A stretch of DNA of 51,419 nt from the NCBI GenBank assembly GCA_027366675.1, contig DAHXND010000180.1, positions 1 through 51,419 on the forward strand, given 5' to 3'. Shown here piece by piece: positions 34,433 to 49,750 of this stretch. The DNA is from Acidimicrobiales bacterium. Lineage in GTDB: Bacteria > Actinomycetota > Acidimicrobiia > Acidimicrobiales > JAMCQF01. Position 1 is the first letter of the stretch, and every line of letters starts with the position of its first letter. The notes under the pieces are model-generated. The model did not search any database, was not told the origin of the DNA, and saw only the letters and a list, made by a program, of their open reading frames with translations. The translations under genes and the position numbers were made by a program.

Positions 34433-35764
34433 GTGGGGGTGCTGGTTCGGGGACATCGCATTCGCCTGGGCACGGTGCTCGGCTTTCCCGTCGAGATAAC
34501 TTCCTCATGGTTCCTCCTCGTAGTCATAGTGGTATGGAGTTTCTGGGTGCGCTACGCGTTGGAGTTCCACCATAAGACAGATGGTGTAGGCGTGGTGATG
34601 GCGATCGTGGCGACGGTCATCTTCCTCGGATCCGTGTTCGTCCACGAGCTGGCGCACGCTGTGGTGGCTCGCCGGAGAGGCATGGCCGTTACCGGTATAA
34701 CGCTCTACATCTTCGGAGGCGCCACGAGCGCGGGCGACCCGAAGAAGCCAGGTGACGAGTTCCTCATGACCGCAGCCGGCCCGCTTGTGAACTTCGTTGC
34801 CGCTCTGGTCCTGTGGGGGATAACCATTGCAGCTACCCACGGGCACCTGGCGGAGGTAGCGGAGGTATCAGGCGAGGCAGCCTGGCTGAACCTCCTGCTG
34901 GGAGCGTTCAACATAGTTCCGGCCTCTCCCCTGGACGGGGGGCACCTGCTCGAGGCGGTGGCGTGGCGGGTAAAGGGGTCACGTCCGAAGGCGATCCTCA
35001 TCGCGGCTGGTGCTGGAACGGTCCTGGGGTGGCTCCTGCTCGCGGCTGGCTTCTTCGAGCTCCTCTTCGTCACGGGAGGGCTGTTCGAGGGGCTATGGAT
35101 CGGGCTTATCGGGTTCATGCTGCTCGAGGGGGCCCGCTCGGAGAAGATGCGAGGATGGGTGGAAGGTGTGCTGGAGAACAAGCCCGCCTGGTACCTGCTA
35201 ACGGAGCACGCGGCCCCTGTCACCCCGGAGACGTCCATAGGCTGGCTGATAGGCGCTGAGCTCGTGCGCCACCACGTGGACGCTGTGCCGGTGGTGGACT
35301 CGAATCATGTGGCTGGAGTGGTGCTCGCGCAGGACGCGCTGTCCATCCCGCCGGCCGAGCGGTTCGGGCGCGTGGCGAAGGACGTCATGCGCCCGGTTAC
35401 CGACCTCCCCTGGGCGCGGGCCAGCGGTAAGGCCATGGATGTGCTCCGCCAGCTTGCCGAGCACCCGATCATTCTTCTGGTGGACGACAGGGGTGGGGCC
35501 GTTGGCGTGGTGAGCGAGCGCCAGGTTGGAGCCGTTCTCGAGCGCCTGCGTCTCCTGGACCAGCGTGGCGGCCAGCCCAGATCGGCGGGCCAGTTCGGGC
35601 CGTCAGGCTCATGGGACCAGTGGCAGCCAGGGGCAGGGTGGCAGCCGGGGACAGGGTGGCAGCCAGGATCCGGACCCCAGCCGGGATCTCCGTGGGATCA
35701 GGGACCACCAGGCCAGGACCGCCCGAAGCAGGATCCTCCTGGCAAGGATCCGGGAGCAGGCTGA
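34433..35764 (+). CDS. Site-2 (M50) zinc metalloprotease with CBS domain pair
   Basis: HELAHAVVARR (HExxH), FNIVPASPLDGGH (NxxPxxxLDG) and a C-terminal CBS-like region (VDAVPVVDSNHVAGVV...ILLVDDRGGAVGVVS). The tail has WQPG(A/T/S)G repeats (18-nt units, 35621-35692). GTG start. Confidence 0.8.
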   Translation: MGVLVRGHRIRLGTVLGFPVEITSSWFLLVVIVVWSFWVRYALEFHHKTDGVGVVMAIVATVIFLGSVFVHELAHAVVARRRGMAVTGITLYIFGGATSAGDPKKPGDEFLMTAAGPLVNFVAALVLWGITIAATHGHLAEVAEVSGEAAWLNLLLGAFNIVPASPLDGGHLLEAVAWRVKGSRPKAILIAAGAGTVLGWLLLAAGFFELLFVTGGLFEGLWIGLIGFMLLEGARSEKMRGWVEGVLENKPAWYLLTEHAAPVTPETSIGWLIGAELVRHHVDAVPVVDSNHVAGVVLAQDALSIPPAERFGRVAKDVMRPVTDLPWARASGKAMDVLRQLAEHPIILLVDDRGGAVGVVSERQVGAVLERLRLLDQRGGQPRSAGQFGPSGSWDQWQPGAGWQPGTGWQPGSGPQPGSPWDQGPPGQDRPKQDPPGKDPGAG

Positions 35765-35870: not shown

Positions 35871-36887
35871 TCAGACCGCTGGAACGGCCGTCTTCACTAT
35901 GGCGCCTGATGGCCGCATGACATGCCAGATCCCATCGAACTGATCCAGGTTCTGGCCGGCCAGGTCGCCAGGAGCGGTGTCCGTAGCGTAGTGGTAGAGC
36001 GGCCACCCGTTATATGTGAGCTCCTCACTCCCGCTCGGCCGCCTCACCTCCCCGACCAGGGAGCGCTGTATGCCGGGCCCGAAGCGCGATTCGCTCAGCG
36101 GTTTCTTGGTGAGCACCGGAGGCCACAGAGCCGTGCAGGCCCCGTGAGGGCAGTTGCTCCTGACCCCTCGCTGGTCACGGGTGAACATGAACACAGACAG
36201 CCCGGACCCTGTGGTGACGATGGTGCCAACTTTGGTCTTACGCGTGGAAAGCGCGTAGGGCGAGCTTGCCGAGCTGCTTGCGGAGCTGGAGGAGCCACAC
36301 GCTGCGAGAAGGCATGCAGCCAGAACTATCACAGCGAGTGGCGTTATGGTAAGGCGTGAAGCCTTGTCCTGGCTGGTGGCCGCATGGCTCTGGCCGTGAT
36401 CACTGACGGCAGAAGTCGCCGCAGGCGTGTAGGGGGAAGCGCCTGGCGCATCCGGAGAGCCTCCCCTGCCGGTACGGCCAGCTCCCAGGTAGCGACCGAG
36501 CAGCCCAGAGTGCTCGGCTGTGGATCCCCACACCGACCAGGCCAGCAGGGTGGTGGCGCCGATCACTTCTGACGCGATCGCGATCCCCCCCGAGTACGAG
36601 ATGCCTGGTTCGTGGAAGCCGAAAAGCACGGACTCGACAGCATATATGTACGCCCCGAGCGCACCTAGGCACATGAGTCCCGACGCGAGTGCCACCAGCC
36701 TGAGCGGGTATAGGGCGAGCAGGATGGCCAGCAAGAACGAGGAGATCACCAGCGCCAGGAACATCCAGCCGACCGTGGGTATGGCATCGTACTGCTCTCG
36801 CGCATACAGATTCAGGTGATCGACGGCTATGACGACCAGCATGGCTATCCCTACCCACAGCGCAGCGTGTCTGGTGTTCCGGGGCAT
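35871..36887 (-). CDS. Fusion of a 4-TM membrane domain to a lipobox-bearing COG4315 (Yx[FWY]xxD-motif secreted repeat, PF03640-like) domain
   Basis: The N-terminal roughly 120 aa form four hydrophobic helices. Then comes LTITPLAVIVLAACLLAACGSSS, a signal-peptide-like segment with an L-A-A-C lipobox. The C-terminal part carries CPHGACTALWPP and TYNGWPLYHYATDTAPGDLAGQ...GIWHV. No in-frame ATG, GTG or TTG precedes the internal lipobox segment. Confidence 0.6.
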   Translation of the reverse strand: MPRNTRHAALWVGIAMLVVIAVDHLNLYAREQYDAIPTVGWMFLALVISSFLLAILLALYPLRLVALASGLMCLGALGAYIYAVESVLFGFHEPGISYSGGIAIASEVIGATTLLAWSVWGSTAEHSGLLGRYLGAGRTGRGGSPDAPGASPYTPAATSAVSDHGQSHAATSQDKASRLTITPLAVIVLAACLLAACGSSSSASSSASSPYALSTRKTKVGTIVTTGSGLSVFMFTRDQRGVRSNCPHGACTALWPPVLTKKPLSESRFGPGIQRSLVGEVRRPSGSEELTYNGWPLYHYATDTAPGDLAGQNLDQFDGIWHVMRPSGAIVKTAVPAV

Positions 36888-36988
36888 GGGTACATTTCAG
36901 CATACGGCCTTGTCCCGGTCAGAGCGCGGGAGTCGACCCTCGCACTTGCTCAGCCAGTTCGTTCAGCGCTCTGACCCAGCCAGGGAGA

Positions 36989-37807
36989 TCAACTCGCGAA
37001 TGCCGTCTCGGCGTGGGCCTCTGCCGGGTCGTCGGATTCTGCCATCTCGTCCATCTGGATCGGTCCTTCGGTGCGACCGGCCAGGAACTGCTCTATGACG
37101 GGATCGGTGCTTGCCATCATCGCTTCCTTGGGGCCGAAGCCCACCAGGTGGGAGCGAAAGAGGATCCCGAGGAAGTCTGCTGTTCTGCTCACCGATTGGA
37201 TGTTGTGTGTGATGATGAAGAAGGTTGCTTTTGTGGCAGCCTGCGCTGTCACGACCAGCTCGTCCAGGTATGCAACGCGCACTGGATCGAGTCCGGAGTC
37301 CGGCTCGTCGAACAGGACTATCTCGGGCTCCATGACAAGCGCGCGCGCCAAGCCGGCGCGCTTGCGCATTCCTCCGGAGATCTCTCCCGGAAGCTTGTCC
37401 AGATGGTCGCCGAGCCCGACTATGGACGCATAGTGCATCACGATGTTCCTTATGGAACGCTCGTTGTTCTTCGTGTGCTCGCGCAGTGGAAATGCGATAT
37501 TGTCGTAGATGGGCATGGAGCCGAACAGGGCTCCATCCTGGAATAGCACGCCGAACTTGCGTCGCACCCGGTAGAGATCCTTCGTTCGCATGCCGACCAG
37601 TGGCTCTCCGTCTACCCATATCTGCCCGCTATCTGGCATGAGCAAGCCGAGGATGTGCTTCAGCAGGACGGACTTGCCGGTGCCGGAGGGCCCGAGAATA
37701 GCCGTGATGCGACCCTTCGGGATGTCGAAGGTGACATCGTCCAGGACAAGGTGGCTTCCGAACGCCTTGGTCAGCCCTTTGATGCTGATGATGGGCGTGG
37801 GTGGCAT
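36989..37807 (-). CDS. mceG: Mce-associated ABC transporter ATPase (MceG/Mkl, MlaF-like)
   Basis: Walker A GPSGTGKS, Q-loop FQDGALF, signature LPGEISGGMRKR and Walker B IVLFDEPDSGLD. ATG 37807 (GGAGA SD upstream) was chosen. The track ORF extends to 38005 but would run into the neighbouring gene. Confidence 0.85.
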   Translation of the reverse strand: MPPTPIISIKGLTKAFGSHLVLDDVTFDIPKGRITAILGPSGTGKSVLLKHILGLLMPDSGQIWVDGEPLVGMRTKDLYRVRRKFGVLFQDGALFGSMPIYDNIAFPLREHTKNNERSIRNIVMHYASIVGLGDHLDKLPGEISGGMRKRAGLARALVMEPEIVLFDEPDSGLDPVRVAYLDELVVTAQAATKATFFIITHNIQSVSRTADFLGILFRSHLVGFGPKEAMMASTDPVIEQFLAGRTEGPIQMDEMAESDDPAEAHAETAFAS

Positions 37808-37970
37808 TCTCCGGGCCTCGGGGCTCCCCTGGCTGGAGCCTGTCCGGCTCCCCTTGCCTGCTGCCGGTTCGGGGCGTACCCAGGAGATGCTCACGTACTG
37901 GTAACGTGCCTGCACAGCAGATCTTGCGGAGGCGCGCATGAGCCCCACTGATGGCATTGATTGGCGTTCC

Positions 37971-39602
37971 TCAGAGGCCGCTGCCGAGAACACCAGTGAG
38001 GTCACCGATCACGCCGGTGGCTCCCGACACCGTGCTACCGAGGGCGCTAGTGGCTCCAGATGCCGTGCGAGCGAGGGCGCTAGTGGCTGAAGATGCCGTG
38101 CTGCCGAGGGCGGACCCAGCCCCCGACACGGTGTTACCCAGGGCGCTAGTGGCTCCAGAAGCCGTGCGAGCGAGAGCGCTAGTGGCTCCCGATGCCGTGC
38201 TACCGAGAGCGCTAGTGGCTCCCGATGCTGCGCTACCGAGGGCGGACCCGGCCCCGGACAGCGTGCTGCCGAGAGCGGATCCGGCCCCAGACACCGTGTT
38301 ACCGAGAGCAGACCCGGCCCCAGACACCGTGTTACCAAGGGCGGATCCGGCTCCCGACACGGTGGAACCGAGAGCAGACCCAGCCCCGGACACCGTGCTA
38401 CCGAGAGCGGACCCAGCCCCGGACACCGTGCTACCGGGGGCGCTGGTGCTCGCGGCGCTGTCTCTTGCCGAGTTGGTAGCAGAACCTGATGTAGTGCCGG
38501 CGCCAGAGGCCTTCACGGGCAAATGCGCCTCCGAGCGGGGATGGGTCACCGATCCAGTCGGGGCGCTTCCGCCCGCGCGGGAGCTCACGGGACTCACGAG
38601 ATGGATGGCCCTCTTCCCGCTGGCCGGCGTGTTGCTGCCCTGAAGAATCACGGTAGGTACGATGACGCCAGCCGTGGCAACCGCAGCGAGAGCTCCGAGG
38701 AGCAGCAGGCGCGCGCTGTGCCCGGCAGCGGGGGCCCCTGACGTCAGAGCCTGAGACCCTCCAGGCATATGGCGGGCGAGCGATAGCCGCATGGCAGCGA
38801 GTTTCTCTCGTATCGCACTGGCGGCCCGGCTTGGTATCGCCCAGAGACTGGAAAGAGCGCCACCCAGCAGAGCGAAGGCCCCGAGGCCACCCTCGCAGAT
38901 CGCCTGGTATTCGCGTTTCAGCGCTTGCCGGGCACGCCACAGCAGGGTTTCCACCGTGCTCACCTCTACGCCCTCGCGCTCTGCTATCTCCTGGTAGCTG
39001 AGTGACGATCCTTCTCTGAGCTCGAGGACCATCTGGTGGCGCCGGTTCAGTCGCCTGAACGCCAACGATGCGATCCGGCGATCTTCTGCTTCCAGTACGG
39101 AAGCCTCACCGTCGTCTCGCTGGATTGCCGCTTCCACCTGGTGGCGACCAGCGAGATCGATATCTGCGACCGGGATGCTCCGGTGCCGCTTCCTGAGCTG
39201 GTCTGTGCATAGGTTGGCTGCGATCACGCTGAGCCACGGGTAGAAGCGCCTGTCTCCACCGAAGCGACCGAGCGCCTTCCAGGCCTTAATGAAGGATTCC
39301 TCGGTTACGTCCTCTGCCTCATGAGAGTCGCGCAGCCTCCTCATGCAGAAACGGAAAAGCCGCTCCCTGTAGCGGCGGTAAAGCTCCTCGAACGCTGAGT
39401 GGTCGCCCGCCTGGCACTGCTCCACCAGCAGGCGATCTCTGGCCAGATCCACGTCGTCCGAAAGTGACAGCCCTACGAGGGACCGATCCGCTCGACTGAC
39501 TCTCCAGCGAGAAGCTCGCTCCTGCCGCTGGCTCTCGTGCCCCCAGGCGTCTTCCTGCTCCCACTGATCCCCTTGCCCCCACTGGGCTTCTTCTATAGCC
39601 AT
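37971..39602 (-). CDS. ECF-type sigma-70 factor fused to hydrophobic segment(s) and a C-terminal 11-residue-repeat domain
   Basis: Region 2 is FEELYRRYRERLFRFCMRRLRDSHEAEDVTEESFIKAW. Region 4 is LNRRHQMVLELREGSSLSYQEIAEREGVEVSTVETLLWRARQALKRE. The same frame continues with hydrophobic stretches (aa 236-256 and 298-320). It then runs through 12 full plus 2 degenerate copies of GSTVSGAGSAL to the stop at 37971. Confidence 0.75.
   Translation of the reverse strand: MAIEEAQWGQGDQWEQEDAWGHESQRQERASRWRVSRADRSLVGLSLSDDVDLARDRLLVEQCQAGDHSAFEELYRRYRERLFRFCMRRLRDSHEAEDVTEESFIKAWKALGRFGGDRRFYPWLSVIAANLCTDQLRKRHRSIPVADIDLAGRHQVEAAIQRDDGEASVLEAEDRRIASLAFRRLNRRHQMVLELREGSSLSYQEIAEREGVEVSTVETLLWRARQALKREYQAICEGGLGAFALLGGALSSLWAIPSRAASAIREKLAAMRLSLARHMPGGSQALTSGAPAAGHSARLLLLGALAAVATAGVIVPTVILQGSNTPASGKRAIHLVSPVSSRAGGSAPTGSVTHPRSEAHLPVKASGAGTTSGSATNSARDSAASTSAPGSTVSGAGSALGSTVSGAGSALGSTVSGAGSALGNTVSGAGSALGNTVSGAGSALGSTLSGAGSALGSAASGATSALGSTASGATSALARTASGATSALGNTVSGAGSALGSTASSATSALARTASGATSALGSTVSGATGVIGDLTGVLGSGL
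37974..38435 (-). repeat. Tandem 33-nt repeat array, 14 units (12 full and 2 degenerate), in frame with the sigma gene
   Basis: Read directly. For example, 38403-38435 and 38370-38402 differ at 1 nt. Units 38403-38435 and 38337-38369 differ at 9 of 33 nt yet encode the identical peptide GSTVSGAGSAL on the minus strand. Confidence 0.95.
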
Positions 39603-39949
39603 GACCCCTCCCAGACCCCCTTCTCAGGCGATCATCACCAGGCGTTTGCACCCGGCAACAACCGGACTACCGAAGCTGGCCCTGCGGTCGGCCCAATCGC
39701 AGTTCCCCTATAGCTCGGGCTGACTTCCCCCGAAATTGCTGTTACCTCACGTATATCACGCTTGGTAGTGCTTTGCAAGCGCGCCGTGTTCGGGTTCTCA
39801 CCACAGGAGCTTCTGGCGGTGATCCCGGACGGATGATGGATGCTACCGCAAGTTCCCGATAGGGCAGCCGTTCCCTCTCCGTGGGGTTACCGTTCGTAGT
39901 GGTGACCGGAGCGAACGGGAATACACGAGATGCTCTATAAGGAGTCAGG
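39603..39949. promoter_or_regulatory. Divergent intergenic control region between the sigma fusion gene and the surface-protein/sortase operon
   Basis: This 347-nt gap lies between divergent start codons. It contains the inverted repeat ccgttcg-N15-cgaacgg (39890-39896 / 39912-39918) and an AAGGAG Shine-Dalgarno at 39939-39944. No confident -35/-10 pair was identified by eye. Confidence 0.4.
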
Positions 39950-41614
39950 ATGATGCTATATGAGGGGAAGATGTACAGATCCAGGGGTCTTGCCCTCGCA
40001 GCCGAGGCAGCCCTTGTCACAGCAGCCGTGCTGCTCGTGCTGCTCTCGAGCGTGGTATTCGTGGCATTCACCGATGGAGCGGCAGGAGCCGCACTGGCTC
40101 CCACCTGGAAGGGGAGCGCCTCGGCTCAGGCTCTCAAGGTATCCCTCGCGGGTACCAGCCTCGTAGGCGGAGATGCCACTTCGTCACTCTCGGGGACGCC
40201 GGCAGAAGGGGCGAGTGCCTCCTCGCAGATGCAGTCCCCAGATCTCCAGGCAACTGGCTCAGGCGAGCTCCTGCCGGTCCTGACAGCGCAGCAGAGCGCC
40301 AGGGTGACGGCGGCTGGCCGCCAAGACTCGCTACCGCAGGCCTGTGGCACCCCCTCGCTTCCCTCGCTTCCCGCTCCATTCACCTCCCTGCTTGCTCTTG
40401 GTGCAGGGTGCGGCTCAGCGACTGCCACAGCGACTGGACCCGACGAGGCTGCGAGCGCTACCGGGAGCGTGGCCAACCTGACCATCGGGCTCGGAGGTCT
40501 GTTGAAGGATGTGCCGGGGCTCAGCAGCGGCCTGTCGAGCCTAACATCGGCCCTCCAGTCTGCCCTTGGCTCCCTGCCGAGCTTGCCGGGCGGCGGGGTC
40601 TCGCCTACCAGTGCGTTGAGCAGCGTGCTGGGTGTCTTGAGCCATGCACCTGGCAGCCAGTCATCGTCGGTCTCTTCTAACAGCAGTGGCAGCGCCGGCG
40701 CGGATGGTGGGGGTGCCACCGTGGAAGGCAGTGGGTCATCCTCGGCATCCTCCAGCGGAGGCTCGGGCGGCTCTTCCGGCCTTCCATCGGTCCCCGGGCT
40801 CTCATCGCTGGCTGGGATCGTCCAGGGCATAGTCGGCTCACTCCCCGGCATGGCAAGCGGCGGCGTCTCCCCGGCAAGCGTGCTCGAAGGCGTCCTCGGG
40901 GTGCTCTCGGCGAGCCAGCTTCTCTCTGCGCAGATTGGCCAGTCCCAGGCAAGCATGGCAGCCACCGGGTCGGCATCCCTTCAGGCCTCGTCCACTGCAA
41001 ACGGGGGTAGCGTGGCGCTTTTCCCAGGGCTGGATGGGGGTTCAACTGCTCTCCTGACCGTGAACGTGGCTGCGGCGAGGAGCGTGGCGACCGAGCCGGC
41101 TGACGGCCAGCCTCCCACGGCGAGCGTGACGCCGGCCGTAGCCACCGTGACTGTTGCCCTACCGGGCACGGCGCCACAGACCCTGTCAGTCGGTCCTGGC
41201 AAGTCGGAGACGCTCTTCTCCGGGACGCCGCTCGAGAGCACGATCTCAGTCGCTGGAGGTAATACCTCGGTGCAGGGAGATACGGCTACGGCGAGCTCCC
41301 AGGGGGTTCAGATAGACCTGCTCCAAGGTCTGGATGGCGGCGTAAACCTCGATCTGGCCTCTACGAACGCGTCAGTCGACACCCCGGCGGTTCCGAGCAG
41401 CAGCCCGGTGAGCCCAGTCCCACCGGTGCAGGTGACGTCTTCGAGCACGCTTGCTCCGGTGACGGGCGTGACAAGCGTGCACACGGGCGAGCCGTGGGCT
41501 GGGGGGCTTCCTTACGCAGCGGGCCTTCTGGCTGTCGGGGCGGGTCTCATGAACCTACAGCGCATCCGGCGTGCTCTGAAACGCCTGCGGCTCCATCATG
41601 TCTCGGATAGATGA
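39950..41614 (+). CDS. Ser/Gly/Ala/Leu-rich secreted protein with a C-terminal cell-wall sorting-signal-like tail (candidate sortase substrate)
   Basis: N-terminal hydrophobic anchor or signal (ALVTAAVLLVLLSSVVFVAF). An internal roughly 40-aa duplication lies at 40511-40642 and 40790-40909. The C-terminus reads LAPVTGVTSVHTGEPWAGG, then the hydrophobic LPYAAGLLAVGAGLM, then the basic tail NLQRIRRALKRLRLHH. Confidence 0.6.
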   Translation: MMLYEGKMYRSRGLALAAEAALVTAAVLLVLLSSVVFVAFTDGAAGAALAPTWKGSASAQALKVSLAGTSLVGGDATSSLSGTPAEGASASSQMQSPDLQATGSGELLPVLTAQQSARVTAAGRQDSLPQACGTPSLPSLPAPFTSLLALGAGCGSATATATGPDEAASATGSVANLTIGLGGLLKDVPGLSSGLSSLTSALQSALGSLPSLPGGGVSPTSALSSVLGVLSHAPGSQSSSVSSNSSGSAGADGGGATVEGSGSSSASSSGGSGGSSGLPSVPGLSSLAGIVQGIVGSLPGMASGGVSPASVLEGVLGVLSASQLLSAQIGQSQASMAATGSASLQASSTANGGSVALFPGLDGGSTALLTVNVAAARSVATEPADGQPPTASVTPAVATVTVALPGTAPQTLSVGPGKSETLFSGTPLESTISVAGGNTSVQGDTATASSQGVQIDLLQGLDGGVNLDLASTNASVDTPAVPSSSPVSPVPPVQVTSSSTLAPVTGVTSVHTGEPWAGGLPYAAGLLAVGAGLMNLQRIRRALKRLRLHHVSDR

Positions 41615-42851
41615 CGCGGCCGGCCCTCGAAGTAGCGGTGCGCGCGCCCTGCATCCAAGCGTCGTAGCCGGTACACTTCTAATCTGGGTCGTTCTAGGAT
41701 TCGTTGGCTACGCTGCCGGCTGGACGTTCCGGAGCCATCGCGCAGACCAGGCCATAGTTCACTCTGTGCATTCGCAGCTTTCCACGATCAGCGTTGCCGG
41801 CTGCAGGCCAGTTCTGCCATCGAGCGGGCAAGTAGCTGGCATACTGTCCATTCCATCCCTCCATGTGAAGGCTCCCGTGGAGCAGGGGCTGGCAGGCGCG
41901 GTGCTGGATGTGGCAGTTGGCCACGCCTCCCAGTCGGTATGGCCAGGGCAAGGTGGCTCGGCCGTCTTCCTGGCCCACGACGTCAGCTATTTCAGCAGGA
42001 TCGACGAGCTCGCTCCCGGCTCTGTGATCACGTTCCAGGGTCTTCCTGAAGGTTGCAGGAAGCTGACGTTCGAGGTCACCGGCCACGACGTCGTTCCCGC
42101 TGGCTCTCCTATAGCTCAGCAGGCAGAGCCATCCATGGTGCTCGACACCTGCTGGCCCGTTAACGCGCTCTGGTACACACCGAACCGCTATCTGGTGCGC
42201 GCCGTGGAGGTAGGAGGCTCGCCTTCCAGGGTCGGTCCTCACTCCAGGGTCAATCCTCACTCCAGCGCCAGGAGCGCTGCTGCATCTAGAAGCGAGAAGG
42301 CGCACGAGAGCCCGCCGGGGAAGGCGGGAGTATCGAGAGCGCTACGGGAAGTCATGGTCAACCCCTCCTCCAGCTGGTCACTGCCGGCGTCATCGAACCT
42401 GGAAGTCCCTGCTCCGGCTGCCCTCGTCGCCCAGGGCCTGACGCTCCAGGACAACGAGGCACCCATGGGAGCCATGGCGCTGCTCGGGAGCCCTGCGTCG
42501 AGCTGGGCAGAGTCGCCAGCCCCGCTGGAGGTGGAGGCCAGCGCTCTCGAGGAGTACTTCGGTGCACTTCACGCGCTCTCTCAGGGCGAGGCTGCCTGGT
42601 GGGCAGATCTCGCTCCAGGAGTCACATTTCCCCAGATATTCGACGGGACTTCTGTGGTAGCCCATGACAGCGGTCTCGACGTCACGATCACGGCAGAGGG
42701 GACGCACCCGCTGGAAGTGATCCTCAGCTCCACCGTCGGGTTGTCAGGCGCATCAGTGCCAGGGGGATCCGGAGCTTACCGGCTAGAGGTGAAAGAGGCC
42801 GTGGAGGGCGGATCACTCTTCATAACTACATGGAGCGTGACGCCCGCATGA
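41598..42851 (+). CDS. Divergent sortase (class E/F-like transpeptidase fold) with N-terminal TM anchor and a roughly 200-aa C-terminal extension
   Basis: GILSIPSLHVKAPVEQG...VGHASQSVWPGQGGSAVFLAHDVSYFSRIDELAPGSVITF...MVLDTCWP...RYLVRAVEV reproduces the order of sortase His, Cys (TC.P) and Arg motifs. The usual AGHR is replaced by LAHD. There is a 17-nt overlap with the upstream gene. Confidence 0.6.
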   Translation: MSRIDDAAGPRSSGARALHPSVVAGTLLIWVVLGFVGYAAGWTFRSHRADQAIVHSVHSQLSTISVAGCRPVLPSSGQVAGILSIPSLHVKAPVEQGLAGAVLDVAVGHASQSVWPGQGGSAVFLAHDVSYFSRIDELAPGSVITFQGLPEGCRKLTFEVTGHDVVPAGSPIAQQAEPSMVLDTCWPVNALWYTPNRYLVRAVEVGGSPSRVGPHSRVNPHSSARSAAASRSEKAHESPPGKAGVSRALREVMVNPSSSWSLPASSNLEVPAPAALVAQGLTLQDNEAPMGAMALLGSPASSWAESPAPLEVEASALEEYFGALHALSQGEAAWWADLAPGVTFPQIFDGTSVVAHDSGLDVTITAEGTHPLEVILSSTVGLSGASVPGGSGAYRLEVKEAVEGGSLFITTWSVTPA

Positions 42852-43810
42852 TCCGAGCGCTTGCTATGGGGCTGAAGTTTTTTCCCCATGTGACCGCAAG
42901 GGTCCTGAAGCTCCGGCGTTTCACCGAGGTGGTGAAGACTCGGGGCCTCGCAGCGCGGCTTTCCAGTACGAGCTGGCGAACGCGTGCGATCATTTTCTCT
43001 GCGGGCAGCCTCGGCGCGCTGCTCACAGGTGGGATCCTGGGTGGAGCTCTGGGTGGGTTCCAGGTCTCCTTCCCATTCGCCGGAGCGTCCAGTCATGAAG
43101 GAAGGGTTCCCGCCCCTCGCGCAGGAAGGGTTCGAGCCCCAGGCAGAGGAGATGAGCTCAGGTCGCAGGATGTGGCCCTGATGTACCCTGCAGGTACATC
43201 GATCGCCGGGAGCTTTGGATCATCAGCCCCCGGTAGCAAGATCCCGGGAAGTGCTAGGGGCGCGACAGGCCCCGAGCTGGCCACGACCCCGGCCAGTGGT
43301 ACCGCCCATGGCGAGCCCGATTCGGCAACGGGAGCCCCACCCCGGAGCACGGATCCCACTCCGGGCTCGTCGAACGGGGCCGGCCCCGGCACTTCCTCGG
43401 GAGCGGATGGACCTTCCGGTGGGTCCACGACGCCGGTATCGGGGCCGGTATCGGGTACGCATGAAGGCTCGACCAGTAGCCCCCTTCCTGGCCATATCGA
43501 TCTCGGTAACGGCACTGTCCAGGTAGCTGCCAGCGGTAGCGGGGTTTCCGTCTCTGCCGGTAAGGGCGCGGCGGGCATCGGAGCAGGAAGCTCCGGGATC
43601 AGTGCTTCCCTGGGCAGCGGCGCAGTAGGCGTCAGCGCCGGCAGTTCCGGGGGCGGATCCTCGGCCACGAGCTCGTCTGGTAAGAGCGGATCCCCGACCG
43701 CGAGCTCGTCTGGCAAGAGCTCGCCAGGTGTCAGTGTGAGCGTTGCCGGGATCGATGTCGGCATCAGCTCTGGAGGCGTGACCAGCAATCTGAATCTCGG
43801 AGGTCTGTGA
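42830..43810 (+). CDS. Gly/Ser-rich membrane-anchored hypothetical protein
   Basis: The ORF overlaps the sortase gene end by 22 nt. It has one hydrophobic segment (AIIFSAGSLGALLTGGILGGALGGF), followed by a low-complexity P/S/G/T region and GSG(V/I)S(V/A)S-type repeats. The exact start is uncertain and no family was recognised. Confidence 0.4.
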   Translation: MERDARMIRALAMGLKFFPHVTARVLKLRRFTEVVKTRGLAARLSSTSWRTRAIIFSAGSLGALLTGGILGGALGGFQVSFPFAGASSHEGRVPAPRAGRVRAPGRGDELRSQDVALMYPAGTSIAGSFGSSAPGSKIPGSARGATGPELATTPASGTAHGEPDSATGAPPRSTDPTPGSSNGAGPGTSSGADGPSGGSTTPVSGPVSGTHEGSTSSPLPGHIDLGNGTVQVAASGSGVSVSAGKGAAGIGAGSSGISASLGSGAVGVSAGSSGGGSSATSSSGKSGSPTASSSGKSSPGVSVSVAGIDVGISSGGVTSNLNLGGL

Positions 43811-44000
43811 CTGCCTCCACCTAGATCGCAGCCTGTGACACGGGGGGACGCCTACCGGCTTGGTCGGCCCCCCAGAGGTCGGTATCGACCCCCCGTGGGC
43901 TGCATTGGCGCGATACATGCCCCTGCACGGGGCTTGCCCCTGGCTGCAGTTCCAGAGAGGGCTTTCATTCGGCCGGCTTCCCAGCGGCCAGCTTTCCGGT

Positions 44001-44040
44001 AGAGGGCTTCCCAGTAGAGGGCTTCCCAGTAGAGGGCTTT
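44001..44040 (+). repeat. Non-coding tandem 15-nt repeat agagggcttcccagt, about 2.7 units
   Basis: Read directly, in the 400-nt gap upstream of the mce operon. Confidence 0.85.
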
Positions 44041-44210
44041 CATGTGCCGGGCTTTAGCGGCTAAATATCTCACTTCCTGTGGTCGGCTGGCCGCAAGGCA
44101 AGGGGTGTTGCCACGTTACCCAGACAGGGGAGCAGTCGAGGATAGGCCGCTCCGATCGGAAGGACTACAGCAGGGGGCCTTCAGTGGTGCAAGATACCGA
44201 CAGGGAAGGT

Positions 44211-45053
44211 ATGAGGGGAGCGCTCGGGCTGTCCTCGGGCGCGCCGAAGGCCCGTCCATCCGATCCTCTGGTGCCGCCGCTCGGAGCGAAGGTTCGGCGG
44301 CTGCTCGAGGATACAGGCAACATGTTCGCAGTTGCCCTGGAAGCGCTACGCAGTCTCTTCACGGAGGGAATGCCGCTCGGTGAGCTCATAGACCAGTGCT
44401 GGTTCCTCGCACGGGTAACGACCCTGCCACTCATACTGGTCTCGGTTCCCTTCGGTATGGTGATCGCGCTCGAGGTCGGATCCCTGCTGTCCCAGGTCGG
44501 GGCGCAGGCTCAGCTGGGAGGCGCGATGGTCCTCGCTGTAGTGCGCGAGCAGGCTCCCATTGCCACAGCCCTGCTCATAGCTGGTGCGGGCGGGTCCGCG
44601 ATGTGCGCCGATCTCGGTAGCAGGAGGATTCGCGACGAGATCTCGGCGATGGAGGTTATGGGTGTCAATCCGCTGAACAGGCTCGTTCTCCCGCGCCTCG
44701 CGGCAGCCATGATCGTGGCGTTCCTTCTCGATTCTGTCGTGAGCGTTGCCGGGATCGCAGGAGGGCTCTACTTCGGAACTGCGTCAGTTCACATAACCGT
44801 CAGCAGCTTCTTCGCCACATTCAGCGAGCTGAGCCAGATCTGGGATCTGCTCATGGCACTGGTGAAGGCGTTGATCTTCGGCCTTATCGCTGCGATGGTT
44901 GCCTGCTACAAGGGCCTCTACGCGAAGGGAGGCCCCAAGGGAGTCGGGGATGCAGTGAACCAGGCTGTCGTCATAACGTTCATCCTCGCGTTCGTGGTGA
45001 ACTCCGTGCTCACCATCGGATACTTCAACTTCATACCTCAGAAGGTGATCTGA
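44211..45053 (+). CDS. yrbE: Mce-system permease YrbE-A (MlaE family)
   Basis: LGELIDQCWFLARVTTLP, VVREQAPIATALLIAGAGGSAMCADLGSRRIRDEISAMEVMGVNP. ATG 44211 is preceded by GGGAAGG. The track ORF starts at 44079. Confidence 0.85.
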   Translation: MRGALGLSSGAPKARPSDPLVPPLGAKVRRLLEDTGNMFAVALEALRSLFTEGMPLGELIDQCWFLARVTTLPLILVSVPFGMVIALEVGSLLSQVGAQAQLGGAMVLAVVREQAPIATALLIAGAGGSAMCADLGSRRIRDEISAMEVMGVNPLNRLVLPRLAAAMIVAFLLDSVVSVAGIAGGLYFGTASVHITVSSFFATFSELSQIWDLLMALVKALIFGLIAAMVACYKGLYAKGGPKGVGDAVNQAVVITFILAFVVNSVLTIGYFNFIPQKVI

Positions 45054-45055
45054 GC

Positions 45056-45946
45056 ATGGCTATAGCCGTCGACAGGGGGGTAGCTGATCGCAGGGGGGTC
45101 TCCGGCGAGCGCCGCCATCACACTCCGGGCCAGCGTGCTCTGAGCCAAGCCCTTGGCGCGATCGAGCTCGTATACGACCATCTGGCCTTCTACTGGCAGG
45201 TTCTGCGGGCGATGCCAAAGGCACTGAAGTACCGGGCCGAGATCTTGCTCCTCATCTCGGACATAGCTGTTGGACCCAGCGCTCTCGTAGTAGGGGGCGG
45301 GATGCTCTTCGTCGTAGTCAGCATCTCGTTCTTCACGGGCACCGAGGTGGGTCTGGAGGGATTCACGGGCCTGCACGAGATCGGGGCCCAGGCATTCGTA
45401 GGGGTGATCGCGTCACTCGCCAACACGAGAGAGATCACGCCGCTGGTAGCCGGGATCGCCCTGGCTGCACAGGTGGGTGCTGGCTACACCGCGCAGATTG
45501 GCGCGATGAAGATCTCCGAGGAGATCGACGCTCTCGAGGTAATGGGCGTGAACAGCACGGTTTACCTGATCGGCACGCGCGTCTGGGCAGCTCTGGTAAC
45601 GATGATACCGCTATACTTGGCAGCGCTGTTCTCCAGCTTCTTGGCCAGCCAGTTCATCGTTACTACCTTCGAGCACCTGCCAGTTGGCACCTACCAGCAC
45701 TACTTCCAGCTCTTTCTCCCACCGATAGATATCTTCTACTCATTCCTGAAAGCCATGGCGTTCGCGGTTGTCGTGGTCATGGTGCACTGCTACTACGGCT
45801 ACAAGGTCAGGGGCGGCCCTGCAGATGTTGGTGTGGCAGCGGGAAGGGCCATAAGGCTCTCGATCATCTTGATAGTGCTTCTGAACCTCTTCCTCTCGCT
45901 CGTGATGTTCGGAGGGGACTCGAACACGGCGAGGTTGCTCGGGTGA
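45056..45946 (+). CDS. yrbE: Mce-system permease YrbE-B (MlaE family)
   Basis: TREITPLVAGIALAAQVGAGYTAQIGAMKISEEIDALEVMGVNS, paralogous to the preceding gene. Confidence 0.85.
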   Translation: MAIAVDRGVADRRGVSGERRHHTPGQRALSQALGAIELVYDHLAFYWQVLRAMPKALKYRAEILLLISDIAVGPSALVVGGGMLFVVVSISFFTGTEVGLEGFTGLHEIGAQAFVGVIASLANTREITPLVAGIALAAQVGAGYTAQIGAMKISEEIDALEVMGVNSTVYLIGTRVWAALVTMIPLYLAALFSSFLASQFIVTTFEHLPVGTYQHYFQLFLPPIDIFYSFLKAMAFAVVVVMVHCYYGYKVRGGPADVGVAAGRAIRLSIILIVLLNLFLSLVMFGGDSNTARLLG

Positions 45947-47358
45947 CGGGGAAGCTTGTGACGAGAGCCACAGCGGGTCCATCCCTCGAGCCTGGGGCTG
46001 TTCCTGAGTCGGCAGAGGTGCGACGTAGCGCTGCGGGCCACGAGCGGAGCCATCGCATCAGGAGGATAGCGACCGCGCTCGTGGCGGTCATGGCTCTCGT
46101 CGCTGGTGTCACGGTCGCTATCAGGGCCGCTGACGGTGATTACTCAGGAGCCTACCGGCTGGTAGGAATGTTCAGTCGAGCAGGCGAGGGGCTTGCGCCA
46201 GGTTCCCAGATCACTTACCGAGGGGTGCAGGTGGGGCGAGTGTCTGGTGCAACGCTGTCAGGTGGTCACGCGCGCCTGGTAATGCTGATCGACCCAGGAT
46301 TCCGAGTCCCACGCGATGCCGTGGCGACCATAGCACCTCAGAATATTTTCGGGGCCGACCAGGTAGACTTGAGCTTCCCGGCTGGAGATCATGGTCCCTG
46401 GCTTCGCCACGGTGGGACGGTTCTGGCTACTCGGGTGCAGGGACAGATCCTCGATCTGTTCGCTGCTGCTGACCCGCTGCTCGAGCGGATCGACACGGGC
46501 GCGCTCTCTAGCGTGGTATCGGAGCTTGCACAGGCGTCATCCGGGGACGGTCCTCAGATAGCGCGGTCGATCAGTGCGGGCGCGAAGCTGGCCAGCTTGC
46601 TCGATCAGACTGTCAGCAGCCAGATCTCCTTCCTCGACAGCTTCGACGCGCTCAGCGCCCAGGTGGCGGGTGTCGGTCCTACTCTGGACAACCTCTCGAA
46701 TCAGAGCAACGTATTTCTGCCATCGTTCAACGATGCGGCAGCATCCTACGCCAAGGTGCTGGCGAGCTTCACGCCTTTCGCCAACGATTTCGCCAGCCTG
46801 CTGGCCGACTACCGGCCGAACTTCGTGCAGCTCCTGAACGAGGGGGAGGACGTAGTAGCCGTGCTCGTCGCAAGCCGGCCCCAGATCGCCGGGGCCCTCG
46901 AGGGCCTGGACAACTACGTGTACAAGATCGAGCACGGTGTCAGCAGCGAGACCCTTCCGGATGGGTCGCATTTCTCCTACTTCAACACCTTCATCATGTT
47001 CTCTGATGTGAACAATCTCGTGTGTAGCTTGCTCGCTCCGAACCAGCCTGGCATGGCATTCCTCGAGCCGCTCCAGCAGGCGCTCACCGGTTCGGGGAGC
47101 CCGTTCAACTGCAGCACGGAGCTGGCCAGGTTCGATGCCGCTCAGGCTGGCAGCTCCTCGACCAGAGCCGCGCCAGCACCAGCGGCCAAGCCGGCCCCGA
47201 AGCCGAGCGGCACGAGCGTCACCTCCCTTCTGCCGCCAGCCGTATCGGGCGCGGCGAGGAAGCTTCTCCAGGCGGTGGACCAGATCCTGGGTGCCCCAAC
47301 CTCTGCGAAGCAGAGGTCGATAGGGTCTTATGTCCACATGCTTCTGGGAGGTCTGTGA
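45943..47358 (+). CDS. mce: Mce-family substrate-binding protein (MlaD domain), first of the series
   Basis: N-terminal TM (IATALVAVMALVAGVTVAI) followed by an MlaD/MCE domain (YRLVGMFSRAGEGLAPGSQITYRGVQVGRVSG...). The start overlaps the yrbE-B stop. Confidence 0.85.
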   Translation: MTGKLVTRATAGPSLEPGAVPESAEVRRSAAGHERSHRIRRIATALVAVMALVAGVTVAIRAADGDYSGAYRLVGMFSRAGEGLAPGSQITYRGVQVGRVSGATLSGGHARLVMLIDPGFRVPRDAVATIAPQNIFGADQVDLSFPAGDHGPWLRHGGTVLATRVQGQILDLFAAADPLLERIDTGALSSVVSELAQASSGDGPQIARSISAGAKLASLLDQTVSSQISFLDSFDALSAQVAGVGPTLDNLSNQSNVFLPSFNDAAASYAKVLASFTPFANDFASLLADYRPNFVQLLNEGEDVVAVLVASRPQIAGALEGLDNYVYKIEHGVSSETLPDGSHFSYFNTFIMFSDVNNLVCSLLAPNQPGMAFLEPLQQALTGSGSPFNCSTELARFDAAQAGSSSTRAAPAPAAKPAPKPSGTSVTSLLPPAVSGAARKLLQAVDQILGAPTSAKQRSIGSYVHMLLGGL

Positions 47359-48599
47359 TGGCCTGGTGGCGGCGCAGCTCCCCCGCGGACGGGCGTGCCC
47401 GGCCGAGGCAGGGCAGGCGCTTCTCCAGGAAGTCGCTCCTGGGCTTCACTGCCTTCGCGGTAGTGTGCCTGCTTCTCCTCGGTGAGCTGGCGATCAAGGT
47501 GGGGAACTTGCATCCCTTCGCCAGCACCAGGACCTACTACGCGGATATGGCCAACGTGACGGGCCTCACGAGCGGGGATGCCGTGAAGATAGCCGGCGTA
47601 TCTGTCGGCCAGGTCGCTGCCATCGGCGTTCAGCACGGGCATGCTGTCGTGACACTTGCGATCAACCGGGGGGTGAAGCTTCCAGAGGGGACAGAGGTGG
47701 GGATCCAGTGGAGGAACGTCATCGGGCAGATGGAGCTGTACCTCTACCCACCATCAGCGGGCCGGCCGATGCCTGCAGGCTCTACTATCCCACTGAGCGC
47801 CAACGCCGCCAGCCCTAACCTCGGGGCGCTTCTCAGCTCTTTCGGGTCTTTCCTCGGCGCGATAAATCCGGAAGAGGCCAATGCGTTTATCGTGAGCATC
47901 GCTAACGCCCTGGACGGCCAGAGCGCACAGGTGCGCGAGCTCATAGCCAACGGGGCAGTCGTATCGAAGACGCTCGGAGGGTTGAACAGCGAGATAGGGG
48001 CGGTGATCGGTGACTTCGACCAGGTGTTGTCGGCACTCGCGTCACGCAGCTCTGACCTCGGTTCCCTGCTGGATCACCTCGACAGCCTGACCTCCACCCT
48101 GCAACAGCACAACGATCTCCTGGACCAGGCGATAGGGAACCTGGGTAGCTTCGCGAACGATCTGGCGAGTCTCGAGAAGACGAACCACGCAGCGCTTTCC
48201 GGCCTCCTCACGAACCTGAACGCTGTCGTTTCGACCCTGAGCACCCACCAGAGCGAGCTTGCAGGAACCCTCAGCACCCTCGGTGAGGGTATAGCACCTT
48301 ACGAGCTGATCTCCTCGCAGGGTCAATGGTTCCAGATAAGGACTGTCTATACCTGCCTGGCGAACGAGACCACTTGCAACTACTACGAGCCGACGAATCC
48401 GCCCTCTGGTACTGGCTTGCTCGGCTCCCCGCCTACCTCGCTCCCGCTATCAGTGCCTGGCACTTCCGGGCGAGCGGCTACAGCGCAGCCATCCGGCGGG
48501 GCTCCCTTCTCTGGCACTGGCGGTATAGAGCAGGTACTGGAGCAAGTGGCTGGGGCTACCAGCGATGCTGGATCCGGAGCGGGAGCGGGAAAGTCATGA
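47355..48599 (+). CDS. mce: Mce-family protein, second
   Basis: TM segment followed by YYADMANVTGLTSGDAVKIAGVSVGQVAAI (MCE domain) and a helical region. ATGA overlap with the preceding gene. Confidence 0.85.
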   Translation: MMAWWRRSSPADGRARPRQGRRFSRKSLLGFTAFAVVCLLLLGELAIKVGNLHPFASTRTYYADMANVTGLTSGDAVKIAGVSVGQVAAIGVQHGHAVVTLAINRGVKLPEGTEVGIQWRNVIGQMELYLYPPSAGRPMPAGSTIPLSANAASPNLGALLSSFGSFLGAINPEEANAFIVSIANALDGQSAQVRELIANGAVVSKTLGGLNSEIGAVIGDFDQVLSALASRSSDLGSLLDHLDSLTSTLQQHNDLLDQAIGNLGSFANDLASLEKTNHAALSGLLTNLNAVVSTLSTHQSELAGTLSTLGEGIAPYELISSQGQWFQIRTVYTCLANETTCNYYEPTNPPSGTGLLGSPPTSLPLSVPGTSGRAATAQPSGGAPFSGTGGIEQVLEQVAGATSDAGSGAGAGKS

Positions 48600-49750
48600 A
48601 GGCTTTCACGGATAGGAAGCCGCTGGTGATCGGCGTAGTCGCGATCGTGGTGATCGTCGTGCTGGGATCACTCGTGCTCGTGCTGAAGCGCACGACATTC
48701 GAGTCCGCTTATCCCATCCGAGCGAGCTTCGCCTCGGCGGCAGGGGTGGGAGCAGGGGCAGATGTGCTGCTCGCAGGTGTCCCTGTGGGGCGCGTGGCGT
48801 CGGTGCAGCTTCATGGTGACCATGTGATCCTAACGCTGAACATAGACCACGGTGTCGTGCTCCCACACGATACGTCAGCCTCTATACAGACAGAGACCGT
48901 GCTCGGGGTCCTGGACGTGAGCCTGCACGCGATAGGCGGGTGGGCTCGCCCTCTCCCTGCCGGCGACCTCATCACTGACACGAGCATGCCCACAGAGCTG
49001 TACCAGCTCCAGGACGAGGCGGGTCGTTTCTTCGAGAGGGTGAACACGCAGGCCTTCAACGAGCTGGTAGATGAGCTGAATAAGATAACATCGGGTAACG
49101 AATCCCAGGTCAAAGCCATCATAGACGGCCTGGGCAGGCTCACTACGACGATCGACGAGAGATCGAGCGAGCTGGCACAGCTCATAGATGCCGCAGATAG
49201 CGTTAGTGGGCTCCTGGCCAGTCATGATGCCCAGATCCAGGGCGTGCTCGACAACCTGACCACAGTGGTGCAGGGGCTGGCAGACCGCAGTGGCGAGGTC
49301 GCGGCGTTCATCCAGGGCATAGACGCGGCGGGCGCCAATACCGCTTCGCTCGTGCGCCAGGATGCTCCGGAGCTCGACTCCCTCATCTCACACCTGGAGA
49401 GCGTCCTCGGTGTCGTAGCGAGCCATCAGCTCGACCTGGCCGAGGCGGTGTCGTATCTGGCTGCCGGGGTGAAGGGCTTCGCGTCGGTCGGCTACTCGGG
49501 TCCGGCTGATACGCCCAACACCTGGGCTAACATCTATACGAACCTCTTGGTGACGTCCGGTGTCTATGGAGTTCTCGGCGCCTGCGGGGCACTCTCCGAG
49601 GTGGAGAACGTCGCCCTGGGGCCGGATCCTCTCCCCTGTGGCAAGCGGGACGGCCCATCCCCGTCAGGCAGCTCTTCCCCCGCTCGCGGATCGGGGGGGT
49701 CGAAGGTGTCCTCCGTGATCTCCCCCCTGCTTCCCGGAGGTGGCTCGTGA
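48596..49750 (+). CDS. mce: Mce-family protein, third
   Basis: MKAFTDRKPLVIGVVAIVVIVVLGS followed by YPIRASFASAAGVGAGADVLLAGVPVGRVASV. ATG 48596 overlaps the preceding stop (ATGA). The track ORF start at 48326 is out of context. Confidence 0.85.
   Translation: MKAFTDRKPLVIGVVAIVVIVVLGSLVLVLKRTTFESAYPIRASFASAAGVGAGADVLLAGVPVGRVASVQLHGDHVILTLNIDHGVVLPHDTSASIQTETVLGVLDVSLHAIGGWARPLPAGDLITDTSMPTELYQLQDEAGRFFERVNTQAFNELVDELNKITSGNESQVKAIIDGLGRLTTTIDERSSELAQLIDAADSVSGLLASHDAQIQGVLDNLTTVVQGLADRSGEVAAFIQGIDAAGANTASLVRQDAPELDSLISHLESVLGVVASHQLDLAEAVSYLAAGVKGFASVGYSGPADTPNTWANIYTNLLVTSGVYGVLGACGALSEVENVALGPDPLPCGKRDGPSPSGSSSPARGSGGSKVSSVISPLLPGGGS

Follow-up and report, generated by a model that had tools for sequence, protein, structure and literature searches.

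What does a sortase do when its gene lies between those of a membrane-tethered sigma factor and an Mce transporter? This question is raised by contig DAHXND010000180.1 of an Acidimicrobiales bacterium (assembly GCA_027366675.1), of which positions 1 to 51,419 (G+C 62-66%) are the window analyzed here. The nearest relatives of the window are all metagenome-assembled genomes of Acidimicrobiales. A sequence-only reading of this DNA had proposed a self-contained unit of four genes at 37971-43810, encoding an extracytoplasmic function (ECF) sigma factor, a divergently transcribed 554-residue surface protein (P554), a sortase, and a Gly/Ser-rich membrane protein (P326, here also called gene 3). According to that proposal, the sortase installs a low-complexity surface polymer or sheath, and the sigma factor, tethered through a related repeat domain, senses or is regulated by that assembly and drives the divergent operon.

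All four open reading frames (ORFs) are present where they were first described. They are real and conserved, and the borders of the unit differ from those originally drawn. An mceG-type ATPase gene lies directly 3' of the sigma gene on the same strand, and two MlaE genes plus at least four Mce genes follow P326. The limits of 37971 and 43810 cut off mceG and yrbEAB-mce, both of which carry the promoter motif described below. We consider it reasonably likely that the locus specifies a sortase system with its own substrate, belonging to a subtype outside Pfam and NCBIfam and co-regulated with the surrounding Mce genes. The adjacent sigma factor is probably part of this co-regulated unit.

The sortase, its substrate, and the sorting signal

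The sortase gene (41598-42851, plus strand) encodes 417 residues and matches PF04203 over amino acids 83-204 with 56 bits (gathering cutoff 26.6). H127 (in LAHDVSYF), C185 (in LDTCWP), and R197, at positions 41976, 42150, and 42186, are invariant in 97 sortases. The enzyme fits no curated sortase class. The class D models score best and are still far below cutoff (NF033746, 57.4 versus 165; NF058671, 58.4 versus 140), and the sole match by sequence in the PDB is Bacillus anthracis SrtD (2LN7, E = 1.7e-5). The class E model scores 35 versus 160 (NF033747), and the substrate motif is xVHTG, not LAXTG. The class C model scores 23.8 versus 160 (NF033745), and the class C lid motif is absent from the consensus of the sortase family.

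An AlphaFold model of the protein (pLDDT 81) contains an N-terminal transmembrane (TM) helix (41655-41723), a catalytic barrel at amino acids 79-209 (41832-42224), a disordered linker at amino acids 214-265, and a compact C-terminal domain (42399-42848). With this model, Foldseek scores sortases from classes A, C, D, E, and F about equally (~1e-10). The C-terminal domain of ~150 amino acids has no relative by sequence in Pfam or the PDB, and a hidden Markov model of it matches only the sortase in each locus, revealing no paralogues. When modeled alone with AlphaFold2, this domain gives a pLDDT of 94 and a pTM of 0.88. Its Foldseek neighbors are all NTF2-like (YchJ, SgcJ, LinA, the CaMKII hub, VirB8-like proteins, and the NTF2 domain of RsgI9), and the domain is assigned by its modeled fold to the NTF2-like group.

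The gene immediately upstream, that of P554 (39950-41614, plus strand, supported by ortholog alignments), overlaps the sortase gene by 17 nt. Its product begins with a signal-peptide-like segment and ends in a motif followed by hydrophobic residues and a basic tail. This putative sorting signal occupies amino acids 505-554 (41462-41611) and reads TGVTS-VHTGE-PWAGGLP, then a hydrophobic stretch, then a basic tail with RIRR; the VHTGE segment lies at 41477-41491. All substrates carry the signal [VIA]-P-[GNS]-[VP]-T-[STA]-V-H-T-G-E-[FPYW]-W-[ASG]-G-[ST]-L-P, which leads into a hydrophobic run of ~20 residues, clustered Arg residues, and a tail that varies from 10 to 50 amino acids. Thus, the tripartite layout of LPXTG-type signals (short motif, ~20 hydrophobic residues, basic cluster) occurs in every substrate. 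The motif itself is [STA]VHTG, and matches neither the LPXTG consensus nor any curated sorting-signal model. A logo of 79 loci shows T(-2), H, T, G, W(+6), and G(+8) to be invariant, with P(+11) present in 78 of the 79.

The pattern [VI]HTG[EA]xW occurs once per locus and always in the gene 5' of the sortase gene (83 of 83 loci). Because of this strict association, the sortase and P554 are supported as a predicted dedicated enzyme-substrate pair, in agreement with the pairing originally suggested for them. A subset of substrates (those of loci L030, L031, L040, L043, L048, L055, and L065; proteins P0255, P0266, P0274, and P0332) continue past the anchor into a cytoplasmic tail that is long and conserved (...GGPPPGPASGTSSVPPPVSGPARRQ). 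A tail of this kind is unusual in sorting signals and hints at a second role for the cleaved C-terminal fragment.

The protein that carries the tag is not always of the same kind. In loci where the module adjoins a sigma gene and no mce genes (L026 and L029), the substrate is a choice-of-anchor P protein with IPT/TIG domains (NF040603, 45-62 bits versus a cutoff of 27), and P554 of the window does not match this model. When window-type and choice-of-anchor P passengers are compared by hhalign, only the 38-residue tag aligns (probability 97%, E = 3.5e-11). These results indicate that the sorting tag is modular and common to unrelated passenger domains. Isolated tags match nothing in NCBIfam or Pfam even at E = 10, and P554 matches no profile from Pfam, NCBIfam, or the PDB. 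The sequence-only reading could assign the unit to no described system, and profile searches agree in that the curated libraries contain no family for P554, P326, the extra domain of the sortase, or the tag.

A word-indexed search for homologues of P554 gave only four proteins, and an exhaustive profile search was used instead. The passenger family recovered in this way comprises 491 clusters (50% identity) of actinobacterial surface proteins that are uncharacterized, and all of its members that were looked up are annotated "hypothetical protein." Among the best 148 matches, 90 end in LPxTG, 19 in LAxTG or LSxTG, and at least 14 in VHTGE, and intermediate signals such as VPHTGLPWAG and STHTGAPWAG are also found. 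The LPxTG members read LPRTGGTPWLP, so that the residues "PW..LP" after TG are common to the LPxTG and VHTGE forms. Because of this common feature and the intermediates within the family, VHTG is supported as the positional homologue of LPxTG, at one end of a graded series (LPRTGGTPWLP to VPHTGLPWAG to VHTGEPWAG). The earlier description of a sorting-signal-like tail on P554 is therefore borne out, whereas the protein is less exotic than it had seemed: its best-matching relatives mostly bear LPXTG or LAXTG signals. The passenger contains a conserved pair of Cys residues (C132 and C154 of P554). The sortase family likewise has a conserved pair of non-catalytic Cys residues (C69 and C153).

This graded series also bears on the possibility that the VHTGE segment is never cleaved, P554 being simply tail-anchored, and that the sortase-like protein has a different target or is mainly a scaffold by virtue of its NTF2-like domain. 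In favor of such a scheme, the cytoplasmic tails of 10-50 amino acids are unusually long for sorting signals and partly conserved (...PPGPASGTSSVPPPVSGPARRQ), and the motif far exceeds a pentapeptide, its invariant residues extending to +11 (W at +6, G at +8, P at +11). However, the catalytic triad is strictly kept in 97 sequences, enzyme and tag co-occur one to one, and a single passenger family connects VHTGE to canonical signals. We judge the uncleaved scheme to be improbable.

Another possibility, close to the original proposal, is that the sortase polymerizes P554 into a fiber or sheath resembling a pilus or a chaplin layer, with the tail of the sigma factor co-assembling. The three non-enzymatic proteins do have a similar low-complexity composition (G/S/A/T/L/V), class C pilus sortases are among the top Foldseek matches, and an analogy exists with sigma-BldN, which drives the chaplin and rodlin sheath genes (PMC6101532). 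However, Foldseek is blind to sortase class here, the family consensus lacks the class C lid, and neither P554 nor P326 has a Pfam match to the chaplin domain at E ≤ 1; no Pfam pilin match was obtained either. The "related repeat domain" does not hold up, as the likeness of the sigma tail to P326 and P554 lies in composition alone (BLASTP E = 0.7-4.7), and homology between them was rejected. No column of the substrate alignment has Lys in 60% or more of the sequences, and one member (P0122) has 0 Lys in 470 amino acids. Because the substrates have no conserved lysine column, polymerization was rejected as a model, and we regard a sortase-built fiber as very improbable.

Conservation of the module and a shared promoter motif

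A scan of one genome per species reveals the sortase in at least 165 species, all of them Acidimicrobiales; genes were called and clustered in 80 loci. The cultured species Aciditerrimonas ferrireducens JCM 15389 is among the carriers, with a locus (L063) of the same type as that of the window. The invariant core consists of three genes, encoding the secreted substrate, the sortase, and a single-pass membrane protein rich in Gly, Ser, Thr, and Pro (gene 3). The gene order of the window recurs in three long contigs, whose sortases are only 44-51% identical to that of the window. The shared order is ATPase and long sigma factor, then divergently a protein of ~475-535 amino acids, the sortase, a protein of ~240-275 amino acids, two MlaE permeases, and six Mce proteins.

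The genomic contexts were counted in 54 species-level loci with both flanks, where sigma and mce genes were sought within 4.5-6 kb. Neither is near the module in 34 of these loci, which are flanked by genes for Lhr helicase, TauE-like, and CYTH/CHAD proteins. A divergent sigma gene alone is present in 10 loci, sigma and mce genes together in nine, and mce genes alone in one. The sigma gene thus adjoins the core in 19 of 54 loci (~35%) and mce genes do so in 10, and where the sigma gene is beside the module, mce genes may be present or missing. This pattern conflicts with a self-contained unit of four genes, as does the promoter motif described below, which also precedes the flanking mceG and yrbEAB-mce genes. 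In a different Actinomycetota lineage (L090), a VPHTG-type module and Mce genes are separated by 2.5 kb and are arranged differently.

The product of gene 3 has one TM segment with a Gly-zipper, followed by an ectodomain rich in G, S, T, and P, and matches nothing in Pfam or NCBIfam. A juxtamembrane RGLxR[WY] sequence and the Gly-zipper TM segment are retained across all three contexts, and in loci without sigma and mce genes the protein begins MSFDEMYDEMLHEEF.

The Mce genes that surround the module in the window have the expected Mce/Mla-type makeup, consisting of an ABC ATPase, two MlaE permeases, and several MlaD/Mce4_CUP1 proteins (six Mce genes in orthologous loci). The mceG/Mkl-like ATPase gene (36989-37807, minus strand; PF00005, 110 bits) most likely starts at ATG 37807 and not at 38005, where the longest ORF begins. 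On the plus strand, the genes for the permeases YrbEA and YrbEB and at least four Mce proteins (MlaD plus Mce4_CUP1 matches in Pfam) span 44211-51396, with yrbEA most likely starting near 44211, and the operon exits the window.

A candidate promoter links these genes to the module. In an alignment of 10 intergenic regions between sigma and substrate genes, CCGCAAG and GTT are invariant and 17 nt apart. This layout is that of ECF promoters of the GGAAC-N17-GTT type. The consensus of the motif is CGCAAGG-N16-CGTT. A regular expression for it (CGCAAG[GT]-N12-15-[CG]GTT) was run on 1.36 Mb of related loci and on shuffled sequence, giving 99 matches versus 7-14 in the shuffles. Of the 99, 86 are on the sortase strand and 91 have one spacing. 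A position weight matrix (PWM) was also built from related loci, excluding duplicate contigs of the window. Across the 51-kb window, exactly four sites reach 21 bits or more and no other site exceeds 12 bits, and the shuffled maximum is ~14.

All four sites are correctly oriented and lie 0-90 nt 5' of gene starts. The first precedes P554 (39843-39880, plus strand; CCGCAAGT-N-GCCGTT, 21.5 bits), with an AGGAG ribosome-binding site 3' of it at ~39940. The second precedes gene 3 (42891-42928, plus strand; CCGCAAGG-N-GGCGTT) and, at 27.1 bits, is the top site in the window. The third precedes yrbEA (44088-44125, plus strand; CCGCAAGG-N-CACGTT, 23.5 bits), and the fourth precedes mceG (37895-37932, minus strand; CCGCAAGA-N-CACGTT, 21.4 bits). 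The same positions are fixed in related loci: 5' of the substrate gene, gene 3, and yrbEA, and on the other strand 5' of mceG. Sites of the mceG type occur also in L004, L006, and L010, and sites of the yrbEA type in L010, L019, L021, L025, L063, L074, and L089. The site of gene 3 is found 11-80 nt past the sortase stop codon, also where sigma and mce genes are both missing. Because the motif precedes the genes of the module and the flanking mce genes alike, we predict that the module and the Mce transporter share a regulon.

The position of the second site also affects the assignment of gene 3. In the window, this motif begins 40 nt past the sortase stop codon, and a distance of 8 nt separates its -10 element from GTG 42929. 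Probably, therefore, gene 3 (42929-43810, plus strand) starts at this GTG and is translated from a leaderless mRNA. The sequence-only reading had taken overlaps of 17 and 22 nt as signs of one translationally coupled operon. The first overlap, between P554 and sortase, holds. The second, between sortase and P326, is true only of the longest ORF (from 42830), and since the motif points to a start at GTG 42929, coupling between these two genes is doubtful in the window genome.

No sigma-70-type promoters were found in 37500-44400, and a search of 36500-45500 against Rfam revealed no known RNA element at E ≤ 0.1. The region at 43975-44054 (plus strand) contains three to four 15-nt direct repeats, GGCTTCCCAGTAGAG, which lie 40-115 nt 5' of the -35 element of the yrbEA motif. 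Another regulator of mce, acting as repressor or activator, could bind at these repeats.

The membrane-tethered sigma factor

The sigma gene (37971-39602, minus strand) encodes 543 residues. Its ECF core at amino acids 59-233 (38904-39428) matches Sigma70_r2 (PF04542, 62 bits) and Sigma70_r4_2 (PF08281, 37 bits); the general model TIGR02937 scores 103.9 versus a cutoff of 42.9, and the BldN-family model TIGR02952 is below its cutoff (82.4 versus 206.45). Hydropathy identifies a single strong TM segment at amino acids ~297-320 (38643-38714), followed by a tail of 223 residues (37974-38642). This predicted extracytoplasmic tail is 73% Ser, Ala, Gly, and Thr and has only 11 charged residues. As the sequence-only reading had noticed, the frame runs through the hydrophobic segment into a repeat: 12 clean and two degenerate GSTVSGAGSAL units occupy amino acids 390-543, corresponding to a 33-nt tandem repeat of 12.8 copies at 38019-38442 (TRF score 267-311). 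The clean 11-residue repeat is confined to the window genome, and orthologous tails are of low complexity without being tandem.

Homologues of the sigma factor form 429 clusters, of which the best 120 were used for statistics. Since the proteins in these 120 clusters are ~350-580 amino acids long, a long tail is the norm in the family. The tail ends in LLGG, LGGG, or LGGL (L.?GG.{0,2}) in 70 of the 120 homologues (58%), compared with 4.3% of internal 8-mers, which argues that the extreme C-terminus is under selection. Judging from analogy, a C-terminal or PDZ protease might well recognize an end of the LLGG type.

Two further features of sigma loci can be noted. A CBS-domain protein homologous to M50 site-2 proteases is encoded two genes from the sigma gene (34433-35764, plus strand). 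This enzyme was considered as the sigma-releasing protease and rejected, as its gene is beside the module in no other locus. In L004, L014, L015, and L025, a conserved block, CACCACTAAGAGTACTCA...GTAAGTCCAC (columns ~130-170 of alignment A7), lies ~100 nt 5' of the sigma start. This block is sigma-proximal in the divergent intergenic region, is absent from the window, and holds the palindrome GAGTACTC. Control of the sigma gene itself may be exerted there.

Does the adjacent sigma factor read the motif? The ECF-type sites 5' of P554 and gene 3 fit the original claim that it drives the divergent operon, and the claim is weakened in that the sigma gene itself has no site. Several observations likewise weigh against the reading favored here, a dedicated sortase system co-regulated with the Mce genes. 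Most ECF sigma factors autoregulate, and this one lacks a motif 5' of its own gene. The module and its motif occur with neither sigma nor mce genes within 4.5-6 kb in 63% of loci, which would require that the factor act in trans or that another factor read the motif. One locus (L088) has the sigma gene with PAP2 and DsbA genes and with no mce gene, sortase gene, or motif nearby. The tail of the window sigma factor ends ...GVLGSGL, outside the majority LLGG-type terminus. No zinc finger (ZAS, HxxxCxxC) was found between sigma-4 and the TM segment; the linker (amino acids 234-296) has one Cys and one His, and neither position is conserved in orthologues. The Foldseek scores behind the NTF2-like assignment are weak (E = 4e-3 to 5e-2, TM-score ~0.45-0.5). 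Finally, the cleavage site and the acceptor of the sortase, and also the pairing of this sigma factor with the motif, are inferred from analogous systems.

The most serious alternative is that the module is an independent, housekeeping-type anchoring cassette, that its position reflects lineage-specific rearrangement, and that the motif is read by a general envelope ECF sigma factor encoded elsewhere. The 34 loci without sigma and mce genes keep the motif 5' of the substrate gene and gene 3, as such a cassette would, and the lack of a motif at the adjacent sigma gene agrees with this as well. Moreover, elsewhere in actinobacteria the passenger family is served by short class-E-like sortases and LAXTG signals; one LATTG member (L091) adjoins such a sortase of 234 amino acids that has no extra domain. 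However, within each ~21-kb locus and the 51-kb window the motif is restricted to module and mce genes, and the sigma gene is beside the module in two unrelated contexts, with and without mce. Closeness of module and mce genes is seen again, in a different arrangement, in L090. Furthermore, in L089 the sigma gene and mceG are divergent from yrbEAB-mceA-F, the sortase module is absent, and the motif is nevertheless present 5' of yrbEA. We therefore regard an independent cassette as unlikely, albeit deserving of attention. Whichever factor reads the motif must be able to act in trans, because the motif is present in loci without an adjacent sigma gene.

Other features of these regions touch the module less directly. 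In the window, the gene 3' of mceG (35871-36887, minus strand) encodes a 338-residue protein with an N-terminal multi-helix membrane region and C-terminal Lipoprotein_15 repeats (PF03640). PAP2 and DsbA genes occupy this place in related Mce-linked loci: a DsbA-like gene, in many cases accompanied by one for a PAP2 phosphatase, is conserved beside sigma-mceG in L003, L004, and L006, and also in L088, and is not present in the window. In L089, a Tad/Flp pilus cluster (14012-21135; two Flp pilins, TadB/C, TadA, and RcpC) is located right beside the sigma-mceG/mce locus. Third-position G+C is 0.66-0.71 in the four module genes versus 0.73-0.77 in their neighbors, and their second-position G+C is high. 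A simple gene caller based on the difference between third- and second-position G+C loses all four genes, because their richness in Gly, Ser, and Ala raises second-position G+C, and offers antisense ORFs instead (40126-40965, 43093-43788, and 37951-38643).

Relation to known systems and proposed function

Dedicated sortases with variant motifs include class D SrtD with LPNTA in Bacillus, class E SrtE with LAXTG in Actinobacteria, and class B with NPQTN. The system described here resembles these pairs in that a membrane-anchored His-Cys-Arg transpeptidase is encoded beside its own substrate with a tripartite signal, and its best sequence matches are to class D (NCBIfam models and SrtD 2LN7). 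It differs in the xVHTGE-x-W-x-G-x-LP motif, the 150-residue NTF2-like ectodomain, the conserved third gene, and the ECF-type promoter motif that is common to the module and mce.

Among regulatory systems, sigma-BldN and RsbN control chaplin and rodlin surface proteins in Streptomyces (PMC6101532). Like that system, the present one has a membrane-held ECF sigma factor, secreted surface proteins as predicted targets (some of them sortase-anchored), and a one-TM tether with a large extracytoplasmic region. In contrast, the tether here is fused to the sigma factor with no separate anti-sigma factor, the targets are not chaplins, and the predicted regulon takes in Mce. ECF sigma factors with fused TM C-terminal extensions are known from ECF48, ECF52, and ECF53 (for example SCO4117), IutY, and ECF243 (PMC8999054, PMC5826349). 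These have the same succession of ECF core, linker, TM segment, and long extracytoplasmic region, which is kept in the orthologues here. Unlike ECF52 and ECF53, the present factor has no ZAS between sigma-4 and the TM segment, and its extension is a low-complexity thread of G, S, T, and A, not a carbohydrate-binding or FecR-like domain. Proteolytic release of the fused extension is an established ECF mechanism, exemplified by IutY and ECF52; among fused-extension factors, activation has been demonstrated for IutY alone, in whose pathway Prc acts (PMC8999054).

The Mce connection invites a further comparison. OmamA consists of one TM helix and an NTF2-like ectodomain, and Mam/Omam proteins are accessory to mycobacterial Mce systems (PMC13492129; bioRxiv 10.1101/2025.03.26.645568). 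As modeled, the sortase also combines a TM helix with an ectodomain of the NTF2-like fold, and mceG, yrbEAB, and several Mce genes lie on either side of the module; the difference is that the NTF2-like domain here is attached to a sortase. We treat the modeled NTF2-like fold as a lead toward a possible physical link with Mce and not as proof of homology to Mam. A 2026 review of Mce systems mentions neither a sigma factor nor a sortase; the regulation of mce in Mycobacterium tuberculosis as reviewed there involves no sigma factor and differs from that predicted here. A full-text literature search found no paper linking sortase, Mce, and ECF sigma factors.

The components are each of a kind already known: an Mce transporter, a sortase with a dedicated substrate, and an ECF sigma factor to which a membrane extension is fused. 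The new elements are the sorting motif, the fusion of sortase and NTF2-like domain, the zinc-finger-less tailed sigma factor with an LLGG-type end, and the promoter motif that ties the sortase module to the mce locus.

How might these parts work together? By analogy with other sortase systems, P554 would leave the cytoplasm through Sec and be held by the anchor at its C-terminus. The sortase would then cut VHTG after Thr and link P554 to a peptidoglycan precursor, giving covalent anchoring to the wall. The predicted target peptide of P554 is ...VTSVHTGEPWAG... / ...PVTGVTSVHTGEPWAGG.... The sigma factor is presumably held at the membrane by its TM helix and ~220-residue extracytoplasmic tail, and proteolysis of the tail would release or activate it, as presumed or shown for related factors. 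If active sigma fires all four promoters, as comparison with other ECF systems suggests, then the wall protein, the sortase, gene 3, and the Mce proteins would be made together. More speculatively, the wall protein, the NTF2-like domain, or both may cooperate with the Mce machine, like Mam/Omam, to move hydrophobic substrates through the thick monoderm wall; the proximity of module and Mce genes in L090 was counted as extra support for such cooperation. In its most specific form, this proposal makes the xVHTG wall protein, the NTF2-domain sortase, and gene 3 structural accessories of Mce, forming a route across the wall that would take up lipids or sterols or maintain envelope lipids and that is switched on by a tethered sigma factor whose LLGG-type tail reports the state of the wall or of assembly. 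This specific form is conjectural, and we think it rather doubtful.

Sortase classes and their motifs are used for predicting surface proteomes and for protein ligation, and a subfamily that spans an order, has a different and longer predicted recognition sequence, and bears an added NTF2-like domain extends the catalogue. The sigma factor adds a zinc-finger-less, low-complexity-tailed form to the ECF factors with fused extensions. For actinobacteria that lack a mycolate outer membrane, the shared motif provides a concrete hypothesis about the function of Mce systems and the accessory proteins they need, and this hypothesis is testable in the cultured A. ferrireducens JCM 15389. If the Mce-accessory proposal is true, then P554 and its sortase would be the first case of an Mce system with a sortase-dependent component, and the genes that share the motif would be the first mce regulon controlled by a sigma factor.

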